DNA of 64,000 bases from a bacterium (lineage in GTDB: Bacteria > Patescibacteriota > Saccharimonadia > Saccharimonadales > SZUA-47): positions 102,436 to 166,435 of the forward strand of contig RFTN01000002.1 in the NCBI GenBank assembly GCA_009923445.1, in the 5' to 3' direction. The notes under the pieces are model-generated. The model had not been told where the DNA came from, did not search any database, and saw only the letters and a program-made list of their open reading frames with translations. The position numbers were made by a program, and so were the translations under genes. Below, piece by piece: positions 17,100 through 62,801 of the stretch. Numbering within the stretch: position 1 is the first letter of the stretch; each line of letters begins with the position of its first letter.

Positions 17100-17807
17100 C
17101 TACTTTAGGTTTTTTTGTGTATGTAAACTAGCAATATCTGACAACAAAGCTACTAAGTCACTAGCGTAGTGTTGTGTTTCTTGCACCATTGAGAAACTTT
17201 TCACCGTAAGTGCAGATGCAATACGCAGTACCTTAATGTGACTTGCGCTATAGTGACCGGACGCTTGTGGCTCAAAAGCCATACTGGGCAAATCAAATTC
17301 AAAGTTATCGCTCGCCAGCAACTTTGCGCCGTCTGCTGCGTAATCGGTATTTATGCCGTGGCCTGACAGCTTTAACAGTTGCATCATAAACCATACGTAA
17401 ACGATGTCTTTATTAGCGCCGTTATGCATTTGAACGAGCGCATCTGAAGTAATGGTGTAGTAGCTATTTTCGCATTCGTGTTCGGTGTAGGCATGAATGG
17501 TGCGGAGTATTTTATAGCCAGTTTCGAGTGTCTCGAGGTTTTTTGTAATATTGCTCAGCTGCAGTAGTGCGTTTGCAGATACGAGTCGTTTTAGCTCGTT
17601 TTGCGATTGCATGTACGTTACGTTGTTTATGCAAAACGGTTCGATGCCGCCAGCTAACTTACTTTTAGGTTTACGTACACCGCGAGCGAGCAGTGAAAAC
17701 TTACCACCAGATTCAGATAAAACGCTCAGTATTCGATCTGCCTCGCCGTAGTCGATACGCTTTAGCACTAATACGTTGTCGACTATTTTATGCATGAGTT
17801 TTAACAA
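17100..17807 (-). CDS. recO: DNA repair protein RecO
   Basis: RecO N-terminal OB-fold block (VLVLKRIDYGEADRILSVLSESGGKFSLLARGVRKPKSKLAGGIEPF). Its 5' end overlaps the REC gene. Confidence 0.85.
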   Translation of the reverse strand: MLKLMHKIVDNVLVLKRIDYGEADRILSVLSESGGKFSLLARGVRKPKSKLAGGIEPFCINNVTYMQSQNELKRLVSANALLQLSNITKNLETLETGYKILRTIHAYTEHECENSYYTITSDALVQMHNGANKDIVYVWFMMQLLKLSGHGINTDYAADGAKLLASDNFEFDLPSMAFEPQASGHYSASHIKVLRIASALTVKSFSMVQETQHYASDLVALLSDIASLHTQKNLK

Positions 17808-18162
17808 GTGAATCTAGTTTTTGCTGTAACTGCAAAAGCGTTGTAAGCGGTTTATACAACACGGCGCTTACGCCCAACTGCTTGAGGGCGCTTATTTGTG
17901 CTTGTGTCATTTGCTGCATTGTCCACACAAGTATTGGTACATGGTTCCAGTCGTGGTAACTTCTAAATTCGTGTAAAAATTCTATGCCGCTATGCCCTCT
18001 TAGCGCTATATCGAGTACAACGACGTCAGGTGAGGTTGTATCAATTTTATGAATCGCTTCTTGGGCACCAGCAACAGCAAAAACGTCATAGTTATATTTT
18101 TTTAAGTAACGGCTAACCGTTGCTACGACTATTGGATCTGATTCTATAAGAATAACGCGCAT
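17788..18162 (-). CDS. Single-domain response regulator (REC only)
   Basis: CheY-like fold with ESD acidic pocket, phospho-acceptor Asp in VVVLDIAL, Thr in LVWT and Lys in LYKPL. No output domain. ATG at 18162 chosen. Confidence 0.8.
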   Translation of the reverse strand: MRVILIESDPIVVATVSRYLKKYNYDVFAVAGAQEAIHKIDTTSPDVVVLDIALRGHSGIEFLHEFRSYHDWNHVPILVWTMQQMTQAQISALKQLGVSAVLYKPLTTLLQLQQKLDSLVKTHA

Positions 18163-18167
18163 ACAAC

Positions 18168-18863
18168 CTACACTAAACAAAGTTGATTTGTAATTTTCAT
18201 ATCGAATACGAGCCCATGTAACCCACCATGCCTTGCAAGCCGAATCGAAGAGCTCATTGCATCAACAAGTTGGTCGGCAATAAATAACTGGCTTGACGCG
18301 CCATTTGCTAGGTCAGAAAAAGGCCTGAGCGCTTTGCCTATGTTTGCTTTTGCCTTTGCAGCGAACTGCCGACTAAACTGCTGCGATGAATCTGTAAAGA
18401 CACCAATACAGATACCATTTTTTGTGGAATACGATGCGAGTGTAATGATTTGTTTTGCTTGTGGTGATGAATGTTGATGAGATTCAATAAATGCTCTGCC
18501 CATCATTGTTAGTGCGGTCGTAGCTACGTGCCTATTTGCCAAAATGACTGCTTGTTTTTTAGGAGTAGTTATCAGTACATTACAGCTAAATTGTTTTGCA
18601 TGATCGGCCAGTGAATATGCCGCATCAACAACTACAGCCGCCGGACTAATTGGCTGCAGGGCGAGTTGTGTTTGTTGACTGCTTGTACTAAGCGTATAGG
18701 CATCTATCGTGTCTATGGCATGCCTGGCAGCAGAACGAATGTCTGCGCGCGCTGACTCTGCTTCGGCCATAAACAAAATACGCACAAGTGGTGTCTTTAG
18801 ATCTTGTGCGAGCGCACTAAACAACGAATAAGCGCTTTGCGTGTCGTGCTTGCTAGCCGCCAT
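18168..18863 (-). CDS. Degenerate histidine-kinase-like protein (pseudo-HK, no sensor or TM region)
   Basis: The H-box-like segment FSALAQDLKTPL has Gln where the phospho-accepting His sits in SHELRTPL. The C-terminal half keeps HATPase-like spacing, but the N, G1 (DSSQQ) and G2 (GASSQL) boxes are degenerate. Confidence 0.6.
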   Translation of the reverse strand: MAASKHDTQSAYSLFSALAQDLKTPLVRILFMAEAESARADIRSAARHAIDTIDAYTLSTSSQQTQLALQPISPAAVVVDAAYSLADHAKQFSCNVLITTPKKQAVILANRHVATTALTMMGRAFIESHQHSSPQAKQIITLASYSTKNGICIGVFTDSSQQFSRQFAAKAKANIGKALRPFSDLANGASSQLFIADQLVDAMSSSIRLARHGGLHGLVFDMKITNQLCLV

Positions 18864-27997: not shown

Positions 27998-28414
27998 CTA
28001 AACCTGCGAGGTCATACCAAGATGCTGTCGAACCTTTTCTACCACATCAGCAATAACAACTTGAGATTTTACTAAATAATCGTCTACCCCGAGTTCTTGG
28101 GCGCGCTGACGGTCGCTGTCTTGGCTGAGTGCTGTAAGCATAATTACACGAACATTTGTGGTTTCGGGTGTGTTGCGCAGAATGTCTAGTACATCAAAGC
28201 CACTCACTTTGGGCATCATGACATCGAGCAATATAATATCTGGCCTAAACTCGAGTGTTGCGGCTAAGGCGTCTTCGCCATTTTGTACACGCTTAACAAT
28301 AAATCCTTCCGCATCGAAACGAGTTGCATACACACTAGCCAGAGAATCATCATCTTCGACTAATAAAATCTTTTTTGGGCTTGTTGATGTTGAGTTTATT
28401 ACTTGTTTATCCAT
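27998..28414 (-). CDS. Single-domain response regulator (CheY-like)
   Basis: ILLVEDDD acidic pocket, phospho-acceptor Asp in IILLDVMMP, MLTA, and DDYLVKS. ATG at 28414 has an AGAGGT SD. Confidence 0.85.
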   Translation of the reverse strand: MDKQVINSTSTSPKKILLVEDDDSLASVYATRFDAEGFIVKRVQNGEDALAATLEFRPDIILLDVMMPKVSGFDVLDILRNTPETTNVRVIMLTALSQDSDRQRAQELGVDDYLVKSQVVIADVVEKVRQHLGMTSQV

Positions 28415-28427
28415 AATACCTCTTATG

Positions 28428-30047
28428 CTACTTTGTTTGTGCGCATGCGTCAATGAATCCAGCAAATAATGGGTGCGGGTGTGTGGGCCGAGATTTAAAT
28501 TCGGGGTGAAATTGTGAAGCTATAAAGAACGGATGATTGGTGCCCTCGATAATCTCTACCAGAGTACCGTCAGGCGACACACCACTTGCGCTTATGCCCC
28601 AATTGGCGTATTGACCTACATACTTATTGTTCGCCTCGTAGCGATGCCTGTGGCGTTCGTTTACTGTTTTTGCTGTGTACAACTTACGCGCTAGCGAACC
28701 CTCTACTAGCTCACAGGGATAGTTACCAAGCCGCATAGTACCTCCCGTGCCCTCTTTGCCCTTTTGGTCGTTCATGGTATGAATTACAGGGTGAGGCGTG
28801 TTAGGGTTTAGCTCAATAGTGTTTGCGCCCTTTAGCCCTGCGCGACGTGCGGCCGCAATAACGCCAACCTGCATACCCAAACACAAGCCTAAATAAGGCA
28901 GTTTTGAGTCTAGGCTAAAAGTAGCGGCACGGATTTTGCCCTCTAGCCCACGTTTACCAAACCCACCTGGCACGACAATGCCATGCAGCCCACTAAGCTC
29001 TTTAGCAATATTTACTTTTGTATTTTCAAACTTTTCGGCATCAATCCATTTGATACGAACTTGTTTGCCCGCTGCCCACGCTGCGCTTTTTAGCGCCTCA
29101 ACGACCGACATATACGTGTCTTGGTTGTTTAGATATTTGGCAACTATACCAATGTGTAGCACTGGCGCACTATCATTACTAGCCCGCTCGACGAGTTTAT
29201 GCCACGATGCAACGTTTGCCTTTTTATTTGGCAAGTTAAGTCGCTCGACAAGCACCTTGCCTATGTTTTGTTTTTCAAGAGTAAGTGGAACTTGGTAAAT
29301 GGTATTGGCGTTTGGCAATAGTACAATTGCCCTTTTGTCGACCCCACTAAACAAACTCAGCTTACTAATTACTTCGTCGGGTGCCTGCGCTTCGCTACGG
29401 GCAACCAAAACATCGGGTACTATACCCAGTCCACGGAGTTCTCGAACCGCGTTTTGAGCAGGCTTAGTTTTAAGTTCGCCACTTGCGCCTAAATATGGCA
29501 AGTATACAACGTGTACATAGGCACAGTTTTCGCGGCCAACTCTCATACCCAGTTCGCGAATTGCCTCAATAAAGCTAAGACCCTCGTAATCGCCGACCGT
29601 TCCGCCAACTTCTATTATATGAACATCAAAACCCTTAGCAGCATTTTGAATATGCTCTTGTATGGCACTTGTCACATGAGGAATTATCTGAACTGTTTTA
29701 CCTAGATATTTTCCAGCCCGCTCGTCGTCAATAACTTGCCGCATTATACGCCCGCTCATAAGGCTACTTTGGCGGGTTAGTTCTATGTTTAAAAAGCGTT
29801 CGTAATGACCAAGGTCAAGATCTGTTTCGGCACCGTCTGCTGTTACAAAGCATTCACCATGCTCGGCGGGGTTGAGTGTGCCGGCATCGGTATTTAAATA
29901 AGGGTCACATTTTTGGATGTTTACGCTTAGGCCGCGGGCCTTTAATATGTTGCCGATTGAGGCGGCCGTTATACCCTTGCCGACTCCAGAGAGGACACCG
30001 CCAGTGACAAACACATATTTAGTAAGCCCAGTTTTGGCTTTTGCCAC
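28428..30047 (-). CDS. pyrG: CTP synthase
   Basis: N-terminal block KYVFVTGGVLSGVGKGI, and a C-terminal glutamine amidotransferase domain with GLCLGMQ and HRHRYE. Confidence 0.95.
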   Translation of the reverse strand: MAKAKTGLTKYVFVTGGVLSGVGKGITAASIGNILKARGLSVNIQKCDPYLNTDAGTLNPAEHGECFVTADGAETDLDLGHYERFLNIELTRQSSLMSGRIMRQVIDDERAGKYLGKTVQIIPHVTSAIQEHIQNAAKGFDVHIIEVGGTVGDYEGLSFIEAIRELGMRVGRENCAYVHVVYLPYLGASGELKTKPAQNAVRELRGLGIVPDVLVARSEAQAPDEVISKLSLFSGVDKRAIVLLPNANTIYQVPLTLEKQNIGKVLVERLNLPNKKANVASWHKLVERASNDSAPVLHIGIVAKYLNNQDTYMSVVEALKSAAWAAGKQVRIKWIDAEKFENTKVNIAKELSGLHGIVVPGGFGKRGLEGKIRAATFSLDSKLPYLGLCLGMQVGVIAAARRAGLKGANTIELNPNTPHPVIHTMNDQKGKEGTGGTMRLGNYPCELVEGSLARKLYTAKTVNERHRHRYEANNKYVGQYANWGISASGVSPDGTLVEIIEGTNHPFFIASQFHPEFKSRPTHPHPLFAGFIDACAQTK

Positions 30048-34790: not shown

Positions 34791-35879
34791 CTAACGCTTA
34801 GCTGTGAGTAAGTAGGCTGCTATACATTCGTCGATATCACCCTCTAGCACGCCCTGTGTATCACTTGTTTCGTAGCCGCTGCGTACATCTTTTACCATTT
34901 TATATGGGTGAAGCACATAGTTACGGATTTGGTTACCCCATGCTGCCTGTTCGTTTGGTCCGCGTAGTTCAGATACCTTTTTATCATGCTGTTCTTGCTG
35001 CAGCGCTGCTAATTTTGATCGTAGTATTGTCATTGCTGTTTCGCGGTTTTGTAGCTGTGAACGTTCGTTTTGGATTGCAACGACAATGCCAGACGGAATA
35101 TGTGTAACACGTACAGCACTATCGGTTGTGTTAACACTCTGCCCGCCCTTACCGCCACTACGGTATACATCAATTTTCAGTTCTTTTTCGTCAATTGTTA
35201 TGTCGGCTTCATTTTCGATTTTAGGAACTACTTCAACACGAGCAAAACTCGTTTGCCTTAAGCTGTCAGCATTAAAAGGACTTAGGCGCACGAGCCTATG
35301 TACGCCGTGTTCTGAGCGTAACTTGCCATACAAAAATGATCCTGAATCAATTGCGAACGTTACACTTTTTATACCAGCTTCATCACCATCAGATTTATCT
35401 AGTATCGTCGTTTTAAGCTTGTGATTTTCTGCCCAGCGCGTATACATGCGTAGCAACATTGCAGCCCAGTCTTGAGCATCGGTCCCACCTGCCCCTGCAT
35501 ATATACTCATAACGACATCGTACTTGTCGTATGGATGTGAAAAATCTAGTTCTATTTTGGCTGTTTTAAACTGATTTTGTAGTTGTGTAAGATTTGCAGA
35601 TATTTCGACTTGCATACTGGCATCGTTCATCTCAGATAATTCTTTTAAAGTCTGTGCACCCTGCCGAAGCTCTGTCCATGTATCAAGAGTACGTTTTGCT
35701 TCTGCTGCTTGCTTGCTTACCGCCTGCGCTTGAGCTTGATCGTTCCAAAAATCTGCTGCCGACATAGTAACCTCGGCATCAGCTACGGTTTTTTGTAAAT
35801 CTGCTATTGGTACTTTTTTTATAGCATTATTAACAGATGTATAAAATTCACTCACTGCTGTTGTAACACTGTCTTGCAT
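34791..35879 (-). CDS. prfB: Peptide chain release factor 2
   Basis: SPF tripeptide (RLSPFNA) and GGQ (SGGKGGQSVN). A single uninterrupted ORF, with no programmed +1 frameshift site. Confidence 0.93.
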   Translation of the reverse strand: MQDSVTTAVSEFYTSVNNAIKKVPIADLQKTVADAEVTMSAADFWNDQAQAQAVSKQAAEAKRTLDTWTELRQGAQTLKELSEMNDASMQVEISANLTQLQNQFKTAKIELDFSHPYDKYDVVMSIYAGAGGTDAQDWAAMLLRMYTRWAENHKLKTTILDKSDGDEAGIKSVTFAIDSGSFLYGKLRSEHGVHRLVRLSPFNADSLRQTSFARVEVVPKIENEADITIDEKELKIDVYRSGGKGGQSVNTTDSAVRVTHIPSGIVVAIQNERSQLQNRETAMTILRSKLAALQQEQHDKKVSELRGPNEQAAWGNQIRNYVLHPYKMVKDVRSGYETSDTQGVLEGDIDECIAAYLLTAKR

Positions 35880-40286: not shown

Positions 40287-41587
40287 AATACTTCTTTGCC
40301 TCCTAAATATTTTTGTAAAACTAGCGGAATAATAATGTGACCATCAGCAGTTTGGAAGTTTTCTATTATAGCAATCATAATACGGCCAAGCGCAAAAGCC
40401 GTAGCGTCGTTTGTATGCATAAGTTCGGTAACACCCGACGCACGCTTAACACGAGTCTGCAGCCGACGCGATTGGTAATCTGTCATGTAATCTGCAGTAT
40501 GCGTTTCACGGTATTTGTTCTGGCCAGGCATCCATATGTTTATATCTATACCTCGGGCATTTGGTTTACCAATATCAAAGGTACATTTTTGCAGTAATTC
40601 GTATGGTAAACCAAGTTGCTGCACTAAATATTCTTGAATTGCTACCAGCAATTTATGTTCATCCAGGCCTGTTTCGGCGGTACTAAACACTTCCATCTCG
40701 AGCTTATCAAACTGGTGCATACGTAAAATACCCTCGGTGTCTTTACCGTAGGTACCTGCCTCGCGTCTAAAACTAGTTAAGTATCCAACATAACGGATTG
40801 GTAATTGAGTTTCGGGCAGTGTCTCGTTCCAGTACATACTGCCCAGTGTGTGCTCAGCACTTCCCTGCAACCACAAGTCGTCTTCGTCGGCACCAACTTT
40901 GTAACGGTCGTCACTCGGCTCCAAACGATCCATGGCATCATATGCGTCGGTTCGTATCATAGCTGGAGGCAAAATTGGTGTAAACGGTTTAGCACTTACG
41001 TTTAGATTATTTTCAGTTATTAGCTGCTGTAATACAGATTCGTTGCCAAGCGTATCAACTACCCACTGCATAATTGCGAACTGCAACTGTACTAACGGGC
41101 CTTTAATATACGCAAAACGACTGCCTGCAATTTTAGCTGCACGATCTTTATCAATAAGGCCACGCGCCTCGGCAATAGCCCAGTGTGACTTTGGTTCAAA
41201 ATCAAAGTGTGGTTTGTCTCCCCACGTTTTAACGACCACGTTTTCTTCTTCGCTACTACCAACCGGCACATCATCGAACGGCATGTTTGGTACTTTTTTA
41301 AGTAGCTCTGTGAGTTCTTGGTCGATTGGTTTTAGTGCATCTTCTATTAACGCTAGATCTTCTTTTACCCGTTTACCCTCGGCAATGTCTTGGTCTGATG
41401 GTCGCCCGCCCTTCATGCGTCCTGCTATTTCGTTACGCTGTGCGCGTAGCACTTCTATCTCAGATAGAAGTTCCTTTCGCTTGCTGTCGAGTGACAAAAT
41501 TTTATCTGCGTCAATTGGGTAGCCCTTTTGGGCTGATTTTTCGGCAACTTGTTTTGGATTGTCTCGAAGTATTTGTATATCTATCAT
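40283..41587 (-). CDS. serS: Serine--tRNA ligase
   Basis: N-terminal tRNA-binding coiled coil (MIDIQILRDNP...) and a class II core (FRREAGTYGKDTEGILRMHQF). Confidence 0.95.
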   Translation of the reverse strand: MIDIQILRDNPKQVAEKSAQKGYPIDADKILSLDSKRKELLSEIEVLRAQRNEIAGRMKGGRPSDQDIAEGKRVKEDLALIEDALKPIDQELTELLKKVPNMPFDDVPVGSSEEENVVVKTWGDKPHFDFEPKSHWAIAEARGLIDKDRAAKIAGSRFAYIKGPLVQLQFAIMQWVVDTLGNESVLQQLITENNLNVSAKPFTPILPPAMIRTDAYDAMDRLEPSDDRYKVGADEDDLWLQGSAEHTLGSMYWNETLPETQLPIRYVGYLTSFRREAGTYGKDTEGILRMHQFDKLEMEVFSTAETGLDEHKLLVAIQEYLVQQLGLPYELLQKCTFDIGKPNARGIDINIWMPGQNKYRETHTADYMTDYQSRRLQTRVKRASGVTELMHTNDATAFALGRIMIAIIENFQTADGHIIIPLVLQKYLGGKEVL

Positions 41588-44431: not shown

Positions 44432-44550
44432 GACCGTAGTATTTTAGGCTAGTTGTTTGGAATAAACTAAGCCCGCAAGCAAGCCGTACTAAAGGTACGG
44501 TGCGTGCGGACTGGAGTTTATTACGAAGAAATAGTCAAAATACTACGGTC
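44432..44550. repeat. 119-nt extended palindrome / giant hairpin with 14-bp perfect terminal inverted repeats
   Basis: GACCGTAGTATTTT (44432-45) pairs with AAAATACTACGGTC (44537-50). Inner stems are AATAAACT/AGTTTATT, CCGCA/TGCGG and CCGTAC-taaag-GTACGG. The right arm covers the heliorhodopsin stop codon. A U-rich tract follows on the minus strand. Confidence 0.7.
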
Positions 44551-45511
44551 GTAATGCGCCGGCAAATACCTGCCATGCAAGCAATGATTTAGCAACAAGC
44601 GACAATATCATGTAGACTCGCTCACCATACAAATAGTCTGCCCACTTACCTTTTTTACGGTACTGCAAGTACATATTTATAGCAAAACTGTTAAACAACA
44701 AGAATATACTAAATAGAATATAGTACACGAATGTTGGTGGCCCACCGCCGTCGCCGAACCTGCTCGAGCCTACAATGTAAAACACATATACTATCCAGGG
44801 TGCAATACCGGCTATACAGCCAACAATATAACTAGTCCAATTAATTTTTTCTTTGCCTTGATTAGTGACTTCCATTATTAATCCACAGAGGTTCATAACG
44901 GCCGTAAGCACAAACATAAGAACAAGCGTTCCTATATCGAAAATGCCTGCAAGTAGCGCAATAGCAACCATCATCGTGCTGGCGCTTAAGCTATACTCGT
45001 ACCAACGCACTTTGTTAATACCTTTTTGTAAGTTTGCTTCGTACGTTTTGCGGTAGCGCGTTGCAATAAATAAATGCGCCAACGAACAAATTATGAAGAA
45101 GGCAGCAACAAAACAGGATAGATTAACATCAAACAAACTACGAGTTGCAGATACCAAAACTGGTTTTTCGGCAGTACTTGCTAGTGTATCAAGCGACAAG
45201 AAACTAGTAGTAACGGTCTGAACACCCAAATCTGGTTTTGATAACACTATAATTGCCACTGCCTGTACAGCATGCAGTGCAGCTAAAATAATATTCCAGC
45301 GGAATAGTTTCTCCATTTTAGTTAAGGGAGATTTTACTTTTTTTACTTTACTTGACTGTTGCTTATGGGCAAATTTTGAAGATGCTTTTTGAGTTTTTTG
45401 TACTGGTGCTTTAACATTTTTTTTGGATGTGGTTTTTGAAGATGTCTTAGTTGATGATTTTTTTGGTGTTGGTTTTTTACGTGCAGACGATTTTTTAGTA
45501 GTTGTAGCCAT
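44543..45511 (-). CDS. Heliorhodopsin with Lys/Ser/Thr-rich N-terminal extension
   Basis: 7-TM core with the heliorhodopsin blocks RWYEYSLSAS, GCIAGIAPW, FNSFAINMYLQYRKKGKW and GERVYMILSLVAKSLLAWQVF (Schiff-base Lys). The first 69 residues contain 21 Lys by hand count. Confidence 0.85.
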   Translation of the reverse strand: MATTTKKSSARKKPTPKKSSTKTSSKTTSKKNVKAPVQKTQKASSKFAHKQQSSKVKKVKSPLTKMEKLFRWNIILAALHAVQAVAIIVLSKPDLGVQTVTTSFLSLDTLASTAEKPVLVSATRSLFDVNLSCFVAAFFIICSLAHLFIATRYRKTYEANLQKGINKVRWYEYSLSASTMMVAIALLAGIFDIGTLVLMFVLTAVMNLCGLIMEVTNQGKEKINWTSYIVGCIAGIAPWIVYVFYIVGSSRFGDGGGPPTFVYYILFSIFLLFNSFAINMYLQYRKKGKWADYLYGERVYMILSLVAKSLLAWQVFAGALRP

Positions 45512-45600
45512 GGAATTAGTTTACTCTGTGAGGCTTGTGCTTACAAGGTGTGGAATTAGCTACAAGCATGTTATGACTTTTGTGCAATTAAAGTCTGTAC

Positions 45601-46230
45601 TTAATTTGATGAGATTATAAGGGGGACTGGTAGAAAAGTAGCGAGCGCTGGGTCACTATAAAAACGCATCTCAAACTGCTCTGATGGACCAAAGCTATTA
45701 AAATAGAGCGTACCTTGGTTTGCGTCGCCTGGCGCTAACGGACCGCCGTCATATAACACAGTCCCATTAGGAGAAAACGGTTTATTAACTACTCCTGAGC
45801 TTAGGCTAGTTATATCAAATTGCAAAAACGGTGAAGTCTGTAGAATAATTTGTGAACTATTTGTAATGCGTAAACCAACTGCTAAAACGCCGTTAGCTTG
45901 TGAAACTGACGTTACCGAAATTACATAATCAGCACTTATTGAAGTTGTCGTTTGTGCCTGGTCTTGTGCGCTAGTTTTCTGCCCGCCTGAATCACCACCT
46001 AATGCTTGCTGCGTTTCGTTAGCAGGACCTGTGGCTTGTTTGTTTTGGCTAAGTTTTAGTAGCACACTTTTTGGAACAAATAATCCAACTATTAATATAA
46101 TTGTAATTAATAGTAAAGATGTACCCATAGCAATTGCAACACTAATTTTTAGCTTGTTTTTAGGCGGCCGCAAACCTGAAAATTTATTTTTTGTAAGCAG
46201 TTTAGTATTTATAGACATGGACTCTTTCAT
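45601..46230 (-). CDS. Membrane-anchored extracytoplasmic beta-rich protein (DUF4352-like)
   Basis: One TM helix, a Gln/Thr-rich linker, then about 110 aa of alternating beta-strand pattern. The family assignment is tentative. Confidence 0.5.
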   Translation of the reverse strand: MKESMSINTKLLTKNKFSGLRPPKNKLKISVAIAMGTSLLLITIILIVGLFVPKSVLLKLSQNKQATGPANETQQALGGDSGGQKTSAQDQAQTTTSISADYVISVTSVSQANGVLAVGLRITNSSQIILQTSPFLQFDITSLSSGVVNKPFSPNGTVLYDGGPLAPGDANQGTLYFNSFGPSEQFEMRFYSDPALATFLPVPLIISSN

Positions 46231-46234
46231 AGGG

Positions 46235-47617
46235 TTATTGCATTGAAAATTCTTCTGAATGTATTCTACGATTTGGCACGCCCAATTGGCGCAGCTGTGA
46301 GCGTAACGAGCTCATCATAAGTGGTGGACCGCAAATAAAAATCTCTTTACCGTTTAGTCCCCCGCACATATCACTAACCTTCTGTGCCGTTAAAAAACCG
46401 TCTTGTTCTTTAGCAATATATGAAAAATAGCGAAACGACTTGTAAGTGCTAGGTAAAAATTCTGCAACAGCTTTTTGATCGAGTAATTCGGTACGATTAA
46501 CGACGCTATATACTAAATCTACTTGCGGGCTGTCAGGCATATAGCTACGAGCCATGCTCAAAAATGGCGTTATGCCAATACCGCCGGCAATCCACACTTG
46601 CGGCGCAATACCAAAACGCGTAAAGGTAAACTTGCCGTACGCACCTTCAATTTCGGCAAGGGTACCTACCTTAAGATTTTTAAGACTTGTTGTATAGTCG
46701 CCCAAAGATTTTATATACAAGCGCACATTTGCCTCACCCGGTGAACTGGCAATACTAAACGGGTGTGCTTCGCGAATAATTCCCTCTTGCTCACTCCATA
46801 AAAAGCGTATAAACACAAACTGGCCAGCTTTGTATGTCATTTTTTTCTCGAGCGGCTCCATGGTGACGCCCACAACATTACCATTTTGATGTGTTACCGC
46901 AATAACCTTGTAGGTATAGCGGCGTACAAATACATTACTCATAAGAGTACGGTACACAAAAGCACTTAGCCCAATTATCACCCAAGCTAACATATAGAAC
47001 TTTAAAAAATTATCCCTAGAAGTATCTGAGCTTATAAGCACAACATGCAAGCCAGCAAACATAAAAGCGACGCCTAGAAATTTGTGTGTCGCCAGCCAAA
47101 TACGGTATGGTAGTTTTACAAAAAACGTCAAAACTAATAGCACTACCATGCCAATAAATGCCACTATTCCGGCGTTAATAGCGAGTGATTGTTGCAACTG
47201 GTAAAACACCGTATCTGACGTAAACGCTCTTGGCAGTAAAAAAGTGGCAGCATCTTTAAACGAGCTTAGAATTTTATAGTCTATAAATTTAACGGCCAAA
47301 AATAGCGGGTGAAATACAAGCAGTATCAGTGCAATTCCGCCAGTTAAGTGATGTGCAATATACACCTTGTTTAGTCCATTAAATAAGTTTTCCATCCAGC
47401 GAGTACGTGCAGCAAGTAACAAATTTATTGCATACAACACAAGCCCAACTAAGCCCGTTAGCTTACCAAACGATGAAAAAAATGAATTAGGGTTAGCAAA
47501 CAAGTAAGAAACATCTTGCAGCATTACCCAGCGAATAACTGGAATAGTGCAGAATAGTCCTATAAGCATCCATCCACCGTATGACTCAATCCACTGCTTG
47601 AAATCTTTTTTACTCAT
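46235..47617 (-). CDS. NOX/ferric-reductase-like transmembrane flavocytochrome
   Basis: 6-TM ferric-reductase domain with two His pairs spaced 13 residues apart (HLTGGIALILLVFH and HKFLGVAFMFAGLH). FAD motif HPFSIASSP, NAD(P)H motif AGGIGITPF, and CGPPLMM. Confidence 0.8.
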   Translation of the reverse strand: MSKKDFKQWIESYGGWMLIGLFCTIPVIRWVMLQDVSYLFANPNSFFSSFGKLTGLVGLVLYAINLLLAARTRWMENLFNGLNKVYIAHHLTGGIALILLVFHPLFLAVKFIDYKILSSFKDAATFLLPRAFTSDTVFYQLQQSLAINAGIVAFIGMVVLLVLTFFVKLPYRIWLATHKFLGVAFMFAGLHVVLISSDTSRDNFLKFYMLAWVIIGLSAFVYRTLMSNVFVRRYTYKVIAVTHQNGNVVGVTMEPLEKKMTYKAGQFVFIRFLWSEQEGIIREAHPFSIASSPGEANVRLYIKSLGDYTTSLKNLKVGTLAEIEGAYGKFTFTRFGIAPQVWIAGGIGITPFLSMARSYMPDSPQVDLVYSVVNRTELLDQKAVAEFLPSTYKSFRYFSYIAKEQDGFLTAQKVSDMCGGLNGKEIFICGPPLMMSSLRSQLRQLGVPNRRIHSEEFSMQ

Positions 47618-57448: not shown

Positions 57449-58855
57449 CTAAAATGTCGGTGTTGCTATGAAGTCGACGCTAGTTGTATAGCTACCAGTA
57501 GGCGTAACTACACCTGCGGCGGCACCGAAGCGTATAATTAACGCTTCGCTTGCAACAACCTTGATTGTTGATGCTGCTGAGCTTGCTATAGTTACTGCCG
57601 CACCTGTTTGTTGCCATGCAAAACCAGTAGTCGTGTCGTATGTACCAGATGTACCAGGTACGAATGTACCGCCAATGTACCCTGACTGTGGGCGTAAGTT
57701 GACTGTTCCTGTTGAGTAGTCACATGTATATCCGCCGTTAACGGCAGTGGGTACGTTAAAACATGCCACACCACCAATAGTCATACCAAATTCTTCGACA
57801 CCATTAGCTAACGCCGTTTGGGTAGTAGAGCTGTTAAAACATTGGTCGTTTGAACTTGAACCTGCATCTAGTATTGAGGAGCCAGTACATGTAACACCGG
57901 GTACTTTTAGGCGTCCGCCCGTTGCGCCGTCTTGCACCACCTGGTAAGCAACTATTACTCCGTTGTTAGCGTTTGTAGATAGCAGAGCGTAGGCGTTACG
58001 GGCGTCGCCGCCGTTAGGAGTCACCGGAACTGGAGTTACAGAAGTTGCACTACTTGATATTACGCCAAGATCTACACTGGTACCATCTGCAAGGGAGCAT
58101 GATGTAACATCGGCAGTATCTCCAGCGTTACGCAGTGCATCGTTACCGTTGGAGCCAATTGTGTTTGTTGTTGTTGTACCAATACAGAATGTTAATGATT
58201 CCAGGACACGGGCATTAATAGTAATTCGTTGGTTAAAAGATACAGCGACCACGCCGGTGTCGACAGCTGTCGTATAGGCGTTATCGCTGTAGGTTGTCAT
58301 GCGAATATACACAGTACCAGCAACAGAAGGAGCGGTCAGGCCACCAATGGTGTGGGTTACTGCACCGGTACCTGCGGTAGCGGCTGTACGATTGTAGCAT
58401 GCAAACGAAGCAGTAGATTGCAAGCAGCCGGCAGTATCGGTAGTAAGATTTCTTGGCGCAAACGCAGTTGCGTTAGCTGGAAAACCAGTCTGAGCTACAT
58501 GTGTTGTTGAGGTACGAGCGTCTAAACCAGTTGGCAAAGTACATGTACCTAGAGGTGTGGTGCAAAAATGATAGGTTAAGCTTTGAACGGTGGCATTTGC
58601 GGGTATGGTAAAGCCAAAAATAACCTGAACGGTTGAAGAGCCAGGGTTTGGTGCGTCAATAGTAGCGGAGCGATTAGTAAGTTGGGCGGCATTAGCGGAG
58701 CTGTGCATTAGCGTAACTAATGACAATAATATCAACATACTTACTGCTACGTTCAAAGACCTCTTGCCAATGGTCTGTATGTTTACATTTATCAACGTTT
58801 TTACCTTTGTTTTATATGTGTACCTCTTTATTTGTACCATAAGCAAAATTATCAT
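57449..58855 (-). CDS. Secreted Thr/Ala/Gly-rich, Cys-containing surface protein, function unknown
   Basis: Signal peptide ending SSANA/AQ. The mature region is rich in Thr, Gly and Ala and has about 12 Cys. No anchor motif recognised. The true start may be an internal TTG or ATG. Confidence 0.6.
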   Translation of the reverse strand: MIILLMVQIKRYTYKTKVKTLINVNIQTIGKRSLNVAVSMLILLSLVTLMHSSANAAQLTNRSATIDAPNPGSSTVQVIFGFTIPANATVQSLTYHFCTTPLGTCTLPTGLDARTSTTHVAQTGFPANATAFAPRNLTTDTAGCLQSTASFACYNRTAATAGTGAVTHTIGGLTAPSVAGTVYIRMTTYSDNAYTTAVDTGVVAVSFNQRITINARVLESLTFCIGTTTTNTIGSNGNDALRNAGDTADVTSCSLADGTSVDLGVISSSATSVTPVPVTPNGGDARNAYALLSTNANNGVIVAYQVVQDGATGGRLKVPGVTCTGSSILDAGSSSNDQCFNSSTTQTALANGVEEFGMTIGGVACFNVPTAVNGGYTCDYSTGTVNLRPQSGYIGGTFVPGTSGTYDTTTGFAWQQTGAAVTIASSAASTIKVVASEALIIRFGAAAGVVTPTGSYTTSVDFIATPTF

Positions 58856-61751: not shown

Positions 61752-62801
61752 ATGAACGGCGATTATACAAAAGAGTTAGCAGAAATAAAGGCACGCATCG
61801 AAGCGGACCCTTCTATTTATTCGTCAAGTGACTACCCGCGCCTTGCCAAGCGCCAAAGCTTTTTAGAAGATGTTATTGCCACACAAGAAAGGCTTAGAGT
61901 GTTAACGGCGCAGCGCGTTGAGGCCGAGCAGATTGCAGGCGGTACCGACGAACTTGCCGAGTTAGCCCAAATGGAGATTACCGAGCTCGATGCTGCCATT
62001 TTTGGTCTTACAAACAAGCTACAAGAACTTTTAATACCCAAAGACCCTAACGACGAAAAAGACTGCATTATTGAAATTAGAGCTGGTGCTGGTGGCGACG
62101 AAGCCAGTTTGTTTGTGGCAGAACTGTACCGCATGTACGCTCGCTATAGCGAAACGCACAGCTTTAAAGTAGAGCTTGTCAGCGAAAGCCCGAGTGAAGT
62201 CGGTGGCTACAAAGAAATTATTTTTGAAATTAAGGGCGATAACGCCTACAAAACATTCCACCTAGAGGCTGGGGTACACCGTGTGCAACGTGTACCAGCC
62301 ACTGAATCACAGGGCCGCATACACACCAGCACTGTAACCGTTGCAGTGTTGCCCGAAGCCGAAGAAAACGACATTGAGATTAAGCAATCAGATTTACGCA
62401 TAGACGTGTACCACGCCAGTGGCCACGGTGGCCAGAGCGTAAACACCACCGACAGTGCCGTGCGAATTACCTATTTACCAACAGGACTGGTTGTTACCTG
62501 CCAAGACGAAAAATCGCAAACCAAAAACAAACTAAAAGCCATGGGCGTGTTGCGTAGTCGTTTGTTACAACAACAAATCGAAACCGAGCAAGCCAAAATG
62601 TCAGCCGAACGCCAAAAACTGATTGGCAGTGGCGACCGGTCAGAAAAAATCCGCACCTATAACTTTCCGCAGGACCGTATTACCGACCACCGCATTGGCT
62701 ATAGTCGTAGCAATATACCGGGTGCAATGGCTGGGCAGATAGATGATTTAATAGAGGCACTAGCAGCGGGCGAAGCTGAACTGCTAAGAAGCGAGAGCTA
62801 G
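61752..62801 (+). CDS. prfA: Peptide chain release factor 1
   Basis: PxT tripeptide ([12 protein letters not shown]) and GGQ (SGHGGQSVN). Confidence 0.95.

Follow-up and report, generated by a model that had tools for sequence, protein, structure and literature searches.

Heliorhodopsins of a large Saccharibacteria clade carry a predicted polycationic, disordered N-terminal tail

A stretch of 64,000 nucleotides from a Saccharibacteria genome (contig RFTN01000002.1 of GenBank assembly GCA_009923445.1, hereafter the window) encodes, on its minus strand at 44543-45511, a complete heliorhodopsin (HeR) of 322 amino acids plus stop, with an ATG start. Our analysis confirms the heliorhodopsin identity of its seven-transmembrane (7-TM) core and points to an N-terminal extension of 65 residues, polycationic and predicted to be disordered, which is probably translated. 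According to comparisons with homologous sequences, a long tail of this kind is the rule in a large clade of Saccharibacteria HeRs, and it is confined to the HeRs of this lineage. As a tentative reading, possible but short of probable, we propose that the protein senses light with retinal scavenged from outside and that its polycationic tail holds it electrostatically to a polyanion of the cytoplasm, the favoured candidate being nucleic acid.

All the sequence and structure comparisons performed agree that the open reading frame (ORF) at 44543-45511 encodes a genuine heliorhodopsin. The translation matches the Pfam profile PF18761 (Heliorhodopsin) over its entire length (profile positions 1-242 of 242, protein residues 69-320; E=3.8e-90, 301.9 bits against a cutoff of 26.7), as well as the NCBIfam HeR equivalog NF038020 (296.9 bits against a cutoff of 100). 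It also contains the four family motifs, RWYEYSLSAS, GCIAGIAPW, FNSFAINMYLQYRKKGKW and GERVYMILSLVAKSLLAWQVF, from which a preliminary description of this DNA had proposed a heliorhodopsin. Among the sequences of the PDB, phmmer places TaHeR closest (6is6, E=3.3e-64), followed by 48C12 (6su3, E=3.2e-47). An identical protein is encoded by a 178-kb scaffold at ENA and by assembly GCA_010031135.1 at NCBI.

In line with these matches, an AlphaFold2 (AF2) model built on an alignment of 40 homologs reaches a mean predicted local distance difference test score (pLDDT) of 83. The core (residues 66-322; 44546-45316, minus strand), mostly above 90, is confidently predicted as seven helices with a long beta-hairpin in the first extracellular loop (ECL1; residues 97-130, strands 97-107 and 119-130). 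When the model was compared with the PDB using Foldseek, the TaHeR structures 6is6, 7u55 and 7clj came out on top, with a TM-score (TMt) of 0.91-0.92 and a root-mean-square deviation of 1.9-2.4 Å (best 0.92 and 1.9 Å), and 48C12 followed with TMt 0.85-0.88. The ten best PDB matches are HeRs throughout (TMt 0.85-0.92), type-1 rhodopsins being far weaker (E of at least about 1.7e-4). Both searches thus return HeRs as the best homologs, and not the non-rhodopsin membrane proteins that the preliminary description had contemplated as an alternative.

Alignment to 48C12 and TaHeR shows that the functional residues are conserved together with the 7-TM fold. The retinal Schiff-base lysine is Lys308 in TM7 (44588-44590; K241 of 48C12, K238 of TaHeR), and the SxxxK motif (S304-L-V-A-K308) is completed by Ser304 (44600-44602; S237 of 48C12). 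The Schiff-base counterion is Glu172 in the RWYEY segment of TM3 (44996-44998; E107 of 48C12, E108 of TaHeR), so that the lysine and the glutamate assigned in the preliminary description hold. His80 in TM1 (45272-45274), located 15 residues past the junction between tail and TM1, and its partner His146 (45074-45076) correspond to His23 and His80 of 48C12, respectively. The codons of these five residues, all on the minus strand, were verified, and the five residues are invariant in the 40-homolog alignment. By analogy with its relatives, the core would be expected to bind retinal, to undergo a slow photocycle and to work as a non-pumping sensor.

The N-terminal tail (residues 1-65; 45317-45511, minus strand) contains 20 Lys, one Arg, 12 Ser and 10 Thr, and no Asp or Glu. 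The count of 21 Lys made earlier for residues 1-69 is correct. Ser and Thr together account for 35% of the tail, and only three residues belong to the set Phe, Trp, Tyr, Leu, Ile and Met, Met1 among them. In the AF2 model, residues 1-60 have a pLDDT of 41-58 and no secondary structure. Regarding orientation, the AF2-defined core loops carry a charge of +7 on the predicted inside and of -2 on the outside, and the tail has a computed charge of +20 to +21. The modelled distribution supports a cytoplasmic N-terminus, i.e. the inverted topology of HeRs, and with it the earlier suggestion that the polybasic segment would face the cytoplasm.

Public annotations disagree on where this protein begins. 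In the gene calls of ENA and Logan it has 322 residues; the NCBI call of the same gene starts at the internal Met66 (45314-45316, minus strand) and yields a product of 257 residues (P0001, 100% identical, 'hypothetical protein'). If the NCBI call were right, the tail would be an annotation artefact and the protein an ordinary 257-residue HeR. Moreover, Met66 is kept in the closest subclade, where a minor isoform from an internal start is possible. In most tailed homologs, however, the position is occupied by Leu, Phe, Val, Ile or Tyr (alignment of 40), and therefore their tails cannot be skipped. In addition, over 100 diverged clusters of homologs keep the tail frame open, and its M-A-T-T-T-K-K start is conserved among the tailed ones (M in 110, A in 108 and T in 99 of 110). 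Because the homologs keep this open MATTTKK frame, Met66 is not conserved and a putative promoter is placed at the upstream ATG, the latter is probably the real start and the tail is probably translated; Met66 is probably not the main start, and we regard the artefact explanation as highly improbable.

The putative promoter (45518-45546, minus strand), as read from the sequence, consists of TTGTAA (45546-45541), a 17-nucleotide spacer and TAAACT (45523-45518), with 6 nucleotides left to the ATG. The same layout is found in the nearest relative among the related loci (L005), and in 12 further orthologous loci, both long- and short-tailed, a TGnTAnAGT element ends 6-8 nucleotides 5' of the ATG. 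A Shine-Dalgarno (SD) sequence is absent upstream of the HeR ATG in the window, in L005 and in 12 other orthologous loci. Upstream of Met66, neither an SD nor a -10 element comparable to that of the upstream ATG was seen. The HeR gene would thus have a promoter to itself and give rise to a leaderless mRNA. The -35/-10 pair is weak and became evident from the comparison of orthologous loci only; a consensus promoter scan, with counts at shuffle level, missed it (8 of 12 matches, sub-threshold).

Across the window, a TAnnnT hexamer ends 5-9 nucleotides before the start in 19 of 63 genes, and an SD is found in 9 of 63. Leaderless mRNAs may therefore be widespread in this Saccharibacteria genome, and starts of this type bear on start-codon calling across Saccharibacteria. 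As the NCBI PGAP start lies at an internal Met, database surveys that rely on such annotation can miss the tail. In this regard, an NCBI entry named 'heliorhodopsin HeR' of Saccharibacteria (P0126) has 248 residues, and a systematic loss of tails in public annotation is possible. Leaderless-type starts with TATACT, TATAGT or TAAAGT hexamers and no SD are seen, for example, at 41587, 43120, 44379, 16417, 35879 and 57400, all on the minus strand.

Among homologs of the window HeR, the best 120 representatives of 90%-identity clusters were examined. A tail of 40-105 residues (median 66) is present in 110 of them. Hence, the extension that the preliminary description had singled out as unusual stands as a polybasic and probably translated segment, but it is not peculiar to this gene. 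The 110 tails consist of 30% Lys, 22% Thr, 13% Ala, 13% Ser, 7% Val, 4% Pro and 1.4% Arg, with aromatics close to zero. Their net charge ranges from +14 to +25 (median +19), and their charge density is 0.29 ± 0.03. A scan of approximately 297 ORFs in Saccharibacteria loci that total 295 kb found tails of this kind on the HeRs alone, the other basic segments being the SecA C-terminus and a hibernation factor.

Acidic residues are nearly excluded from these tails: they make up 7 of 5,094 positions (0.14%) in the first 60% of 129 tails, compared with 10.6% in the proteins of the window. Since a single AAA-to-GAA transition is enough to make a Glu, this near-absence indicates selection. Pairwise identity among tails is 0.37-0.40, against 0.32 for shuffled tails and 0.66 for the cores. 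An identity near the shuffled level together with a constant charge implies that selection would act on charge, composition and the first seven residues rather than on sequence. The notion that the tail is kept by selection on charge density and composition is, on these comparisons, well supported.

The distribution of tails was further viewed on a rough neighbour-joining (NJ) tree of 161 HeR cores. No tail is seen in the HeRs of Clostridia, archaea, Dojkabacteria and WWE3. Within Saccharibacteria, some orthologs start with a short basic segment (9-19 residues, +2 to +7), the tails of one subclade measure 40-54 residues, and those of the large clade that includes the window HeR measure 55-110 residues. 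Long- and short-tailed HeR genes share the syntenic block and the leaderless-type promoter. This implies that the start codon stayed in place and that the tail lengthened within the coding sequence, in the stretch that leads up to TM1.

A small group of Saccharibacteria HeRs (L031:5722-6744; P0122-P0125 and P0128) has tails richer in Arg and Ala (PAAKK/TPAKK-like), with a charge of up to +31 in 85 residues. These tails begin with MAT[TSK]KK, and the nearest core relatives of the group are tail-less proteins of about 255 residues. We considered an independent origin of these tails, as L031 stands apart in the NJ tree, and regard it as unproven given the common MAT[TSK]KK start and the roughness of the tree.

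The query tail has no match to any Pfam or NCBIfam family. When ten diverse homolog tails were scanned against Pfam at E<=10, four gave sub-threshold matches to HC2 (PF07382, Chlamydia Hc2; 11-17 bits against a cutoff of 40), the remaining matches being compositional noise. P0123, from the L031 group, carries a precomputed PF07382 HC2 match. We rejected membership of the tail in an H1-like family, as the query has no HC2 match, those of the homologs are sub-threshold and the likeness is compositional only; accordingly, the histone-tail character attributed to the segment in the preliminary description survives as a statement about composition. A tail-only word-index search across 5.8 billion proteins returned 12 candidates that shared words with this low-complexity query, and none of them scored.

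Bacterial H1-like tails such as that of Chlamydia Hc2 resemble the HeR tail in being lysine-rich, acid-free, of low complexity and disordered. They differ in that they are rich in Ala and Pro and belong to soluble DNA-binding proteins, whereas the HeR tail is rich in Thr and Ser and is attached to a 7-TM photoreceptor, with no detectable homology between the two. Further H1-like lysine-rich tails are the C-terminus of HupB, the N-terminus of Deinococcus HU and the C-terminus of PhaF. The PhaF tail anchors a structure other than DNA to the nucleoid, which provides a functional analogy to the HeR tail.

Among HeRs of solved structure, TaHeR of the Thermoplasmatales archaeon SG8-52-1 (6IS6, 7U55, 7CLJ) is the best relative, with about 46% identity. 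It has the counterion Glu, the SxxxK Lys, the His pair and the long ECL1 hairpin in common with the window HeR, but it is archaeal, has a short N-terminus and lacks a polycationic tail. The TaHeR host is devoid of retinal synthesis, and TaHeR takes up external retinal (summarised in PMC9296517). The founding member 48C12 (6SU3, 6SU4, 6UH3) has the same fold, equivalent key residues (E107, K241, H23 and H80 for E172, K308, H80 and H146) and matching family motifs; nevertheless, it is more distant than TaHeR (36-38% identity) and has only about 17 residues before TM1.

Modules attached to the N-terminus of HeRs have been reported before. The main text of Bulzu et al. (2021; PMC8612252) surveys N-terminal extensions of more than 50 residues, distinguishes ten variants and interprets only the zinc ribbon; MORN repeats on HeRs are presented there as found separately by standard domain searches. 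A polycationic tail is not described in that main text, and it may be among the uninterpreted variants ntv2-ntv10. Znf-HeR and MORN-HeR, like the window HeR, bear an extra module on the cytoplasmic N-terminus; unlike it, their modules are folded domains and occur in Thermoplasmatales and Firmicutes, whereas the module described here is a disordered polycation of Saccharibacteria.

The action of HeRs through their cytoplasmic face also has precedents. In AbHeR, the residues K216, K217 and K220 of the third intracellular loop (ICL3), which is cytoplasmic, are required for the binding of glutamine synthetase (PMC9529153), and the RKKGKW loop of the window HeR is the equivalent of this Lys loop. 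TfHeR with photolyase and OcHeR with an ABC transporter reportedly likewise act on a partner via the cytoplasmic face, and no long tail is reported for AbHeR, TfHeR or OcHeR. The partners of these three HeRs are encoded beside the HeR gene, whereas the neighbours of the window HeR are unrelated housekeeping genes.

It is already known that Saccharibacteria have HeRs and make no retinal; with a clade-wide occurrence and a published context, the tail is less singular than first thought. What is new is the fusion of a HeR to a disordered polycation instead of a folded domain, an arrangement for which we found no description in the literature searched. There, judged in part by titles and abstracts, no paper deals with a lysine-rich or disordered HeR tail, and two recent surveys of HeRs are silent on it. 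HeRs are abundant, and their physiological role has been resolved in a handful of cases, each with a different cytoplasmic partner. In this context, a disordered module of about +20 is fixed on a photoreceptor and kept across well over 100 diverged sequences, and the long- and short-tailed orthologs at the same chromosomal position constitute a natural comparison set for the cytoplasmic contacts of HeRs.

These observations allow us to put forward a tentative model. The 7-TM core would hold external all-trans retinal on Lys308, Glu172 acting as the counterion, and would operate as a slow-cycling light sensor rather than as an ion pump, as in TaHeR, its closest characterised relative. The leaderless mRNA would be translated from the ATG of MATTTKK, each molecule bearing a disordered K/T/S/A tail of about 65 residues and a charge of +21. 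This tail would hang into the cytoplasm from helix A, the bearer of His80 of the proton-accepting His pair, and would anchor the protein there to a polyanion by non-specific electrostatic attraction. The preferred candidate for this polyanion is nucleoid DNA or RNA, which would leave the light sensor coupled to, or co-localised with, nucleic acid.

We favour nucleic acid because the tail is almost devoid of hydrophobic and aromatic residues, has an H1-like composition and has the nucleoid within its reach. In a cell about 0.2-0.3 µm across, an expanded chain of about 65 residues at the membrane can reach the nucleoid. The scarcity of hydrophobic and aromatic residues also argues for electrostatics rather than for membrane insertion. 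Since the tail emanates from the helix that holds His80, a coupling of the photocycle to the tail is structurally plausible in the model. Should the tail bind nucleic acid, there would be a direct link between light sensing and the nucleoid in cells that rank among the smallest known; should it bind lipid or protein instead, the tail would still define an interaction surface.

Several points weigh against the proposal of a tether to nucleic acid. The binding partner of the tail is one that we infer, and the leaderless transcript is likewise deduced from the sequence, at a site that the promoter scan did not score. The Thr and Ser content of 35% exceeds that of the classical A/P-rich H1-like tails, and the query tail matches no DNA-binding family. 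Motifs of the SPKK type (S/T-P-K-K), associated with the minor groove, number 17 against 11.2 ± 3.4 in shuffled sequences (z=1.7), which is not significant. An exhaustive tail-only phmmer search of 1.84 billion representatives gave no match at E<=1e-3, other HeR tails included; with no relatives at the sequence level, the tail is untraceable as a mobile module. Furthermore, there are syntenic orthologs with merely 11-16 basic residues, and therefore the long tail is not essential to HeR function in this lineage. Finally, no hint of function comes from the conserved neighbours of the HeR gene, which are housekeeping genes.

Other roles for the tail have to be weighed against the same evidence. 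One is that it lies on the inner leaflet and binds anionic phospholipids such as phosphatidylglycerol and cardiolipin, reinforcing the N-in topology or insertion of the protein or clustering HeR molecules in patches of anionic lipid. The +21 charge adjoins TM1, HeRs are N-in, and the short-tailed orthologs are still basic at the N-terminus (+3 to +7; MKKLRAIFKSKHK), so that the long tail resembles an expanded positive-inside signal. For topology itself, however, the tail is dispensable in the modelled protein, as the charges of the core loops suffice, and tail-less and short-tailed relatives evidently insert correctly. In addition, the near-zero aromatic content leaves the tail without the hydrophobics typical of membrane-binding polybasic segments, and a charge density held so tightly over 40-105 residues goes beyond topological need. 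We consider a lipid-binding role somewhat unlikely. The tail could also serve as an arm that docks onto, or signals to, a protein partner such as an acidic enzyme or a regulator, possibly under the control of Ser/Thr phosphorylation, which its abundant Ser and Thr would permit. The HeR functions reported so far all consist in protein-protein regulation via the cytoplasmic face, the cationic ICL3 of AbHeR being critical (PMC9529153), and the MATTTKK heptapeptide is far better conserved than the remaining tail, as expected of a short linear motif. Nonetheless, no candidate partner is conserved beside the gene, where TrmA, RsmE, a PD-(D/E)XK nuclease and SerRS are encoded, and a histidine kinase is absent within 10 kb on either side. 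Identity at the shuffle level past the first seven residues is unusual for a specific interface, and the conservation of MATTTKK may instead reflect the needs of a leaderless mRNA 5' end. A protein-docking role is, in our judgement, unlikely.

A different kind of explanation would dispense with function altogether, the tail being a neutral low-complexity expansion, produced by replication slippage on A-rich Lys codons and tolerated because it is cytoplasmic and disordered. In A-rich tracts, polymerases are prone to slip during replication or transcription and ribosomes to slide, and A makes up 51% of the tail DNA, which has six A-runs of 6-8 nucleotides and Lys codons in a ratio of 18 AAA to 2 AAG. 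The variable tail length with many indels, the identity near the shuffled level and the existence of short-tailed orthologs would all fit such an origin. On the other hand, the exclusion of acidic residues in spite of the ease of the AAA-to-GAA change, the constant charge density, the intact frame in more than 100 diverged clusters and the lack of a comparable expansion in any other gene of the Saccharibacteria loci scanned argue against neutrality, which we hold to be quite unlikely. A second open frame, an alternative-frame ORF at 45343-45540 (minus strand), runs across the tail DNA and is most likely a by-product of its composition.

The proposal of an electrostatic tether has a bolder form, in which the HeRs of the large Saccharibacteria clade would be light-responsive tethers between membrane and nucleoid, the acid-free tail binding DNA or RNA non-specifically and the photocycle altering its hold. 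We put this forward as a long shot. If it were true, the DNA could be protected from light and oxidative damage, or its compaction or expression could change with daylight, and this would be the first rhodopsin to act on nucleic acid directly, without a protein transducer.

Among GTDB species representatives, 41 related loci were recovered. The nearest are those of metagenome-assembled genomes of Candidatus Saccharibacteria, followed by Dojkabacteria and WWE3 and then by Thermoplasmata/Methanomassiliicoccales archaea and Clostridia. The genes that flank HeR in the window, encoding a TrmA-like methyltransferase, RsmE, a PD-(D/E)XK nuclease and seryl-tRNA synthetase (SerRS), are syntenic with Saccharibacteria loci at 36-80% identity, which assigns the window to a freshwater member of Saccharibacteria (Patescibacteria/CPR). 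The Pfam content of the window comprises cell-wall, translation, tRNA-synthetase, SecA and ABC-transporter genes, with no type-1 rhodopsin in the annotation. No Pfam-annotatable carotenoid or retinal gene (crt, blh) was found in the 64 kb, in which several hypothetical proteins have no Pfam match at all. The reduced-genome context free of retinal synthesis that the preliminary description emphasised thus holds within the window as far as Pfam annotation goes, but it had already been published. Chiriac et al. (PMC9166423) report 80 HeRs in Saccharimonadia, where HeRs are common, and Jaffe et al. (PMC9296517) report rhodopsin-bearing Saccharibacteria that lack blh and load external retinal, probably from actinobacterial hosts. 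We infer that the window HeR likewise scavenges retinal from outside, its lineage making none.

In the surroundings of the HeR gene, no two-component gene, histidine kinases included, is found within 10 kb. This contrasts with the linkage between HeRs and kinases reportedly seen in other phyla. Two stand-alone receiver proteins (PF00072) are encoded at 17788-18180 and 27998-28465, both on the minus strand, and the window contains no histidine kinase. Directly upstream of HeR, 46235-47617 (minus strand) encodes a NOX-like membrane protein of 460 residues with Ferric_reduct, FAD_binding_8 and NAD_binding_1 domains; L005, the closest relative, is alone in having this gene too (65% identity). Adjoining it, 45601-46230 (minus strand) encodes a membrane-anchored protein of 209 residues with no Pfam match. 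A link between the NOX-like neighbour and the proposed role of HeRs in oxidative stress is possible, though unsupported. Downstream, the 163-bp gap past the HeR stop contains a weak terminator-like hairpin (44470-44485, minus strand), to which we give low weight, as the terminator scan found one site in the scanned region against a shuffle mean of 2.0 and thus no more than expected.

Other genes of the contig deserve brief mention. A 468-residue ORF at 57449-58855 has no identical protein on record and was scanned against Pfam directly. Some other lineages of the candidate phyla radiation depart from the standard genetic code at UGA; the two class-I release factor genes (PCRF + RF-1) of the window, at 34791-35879 (minus strand) and 61752-62801 (plus strand), fit the standard code with UGA as a stop. 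Beyond the low-coordinate end of the window, the same contig encodes an ATPase of 854 residues with DUF87 and TrwB_AAD_bind domains (L046:16676-19240; VirB4/VirD4-like), which recalls a type IV secretion or conjugation-like system of Patescibacteria.

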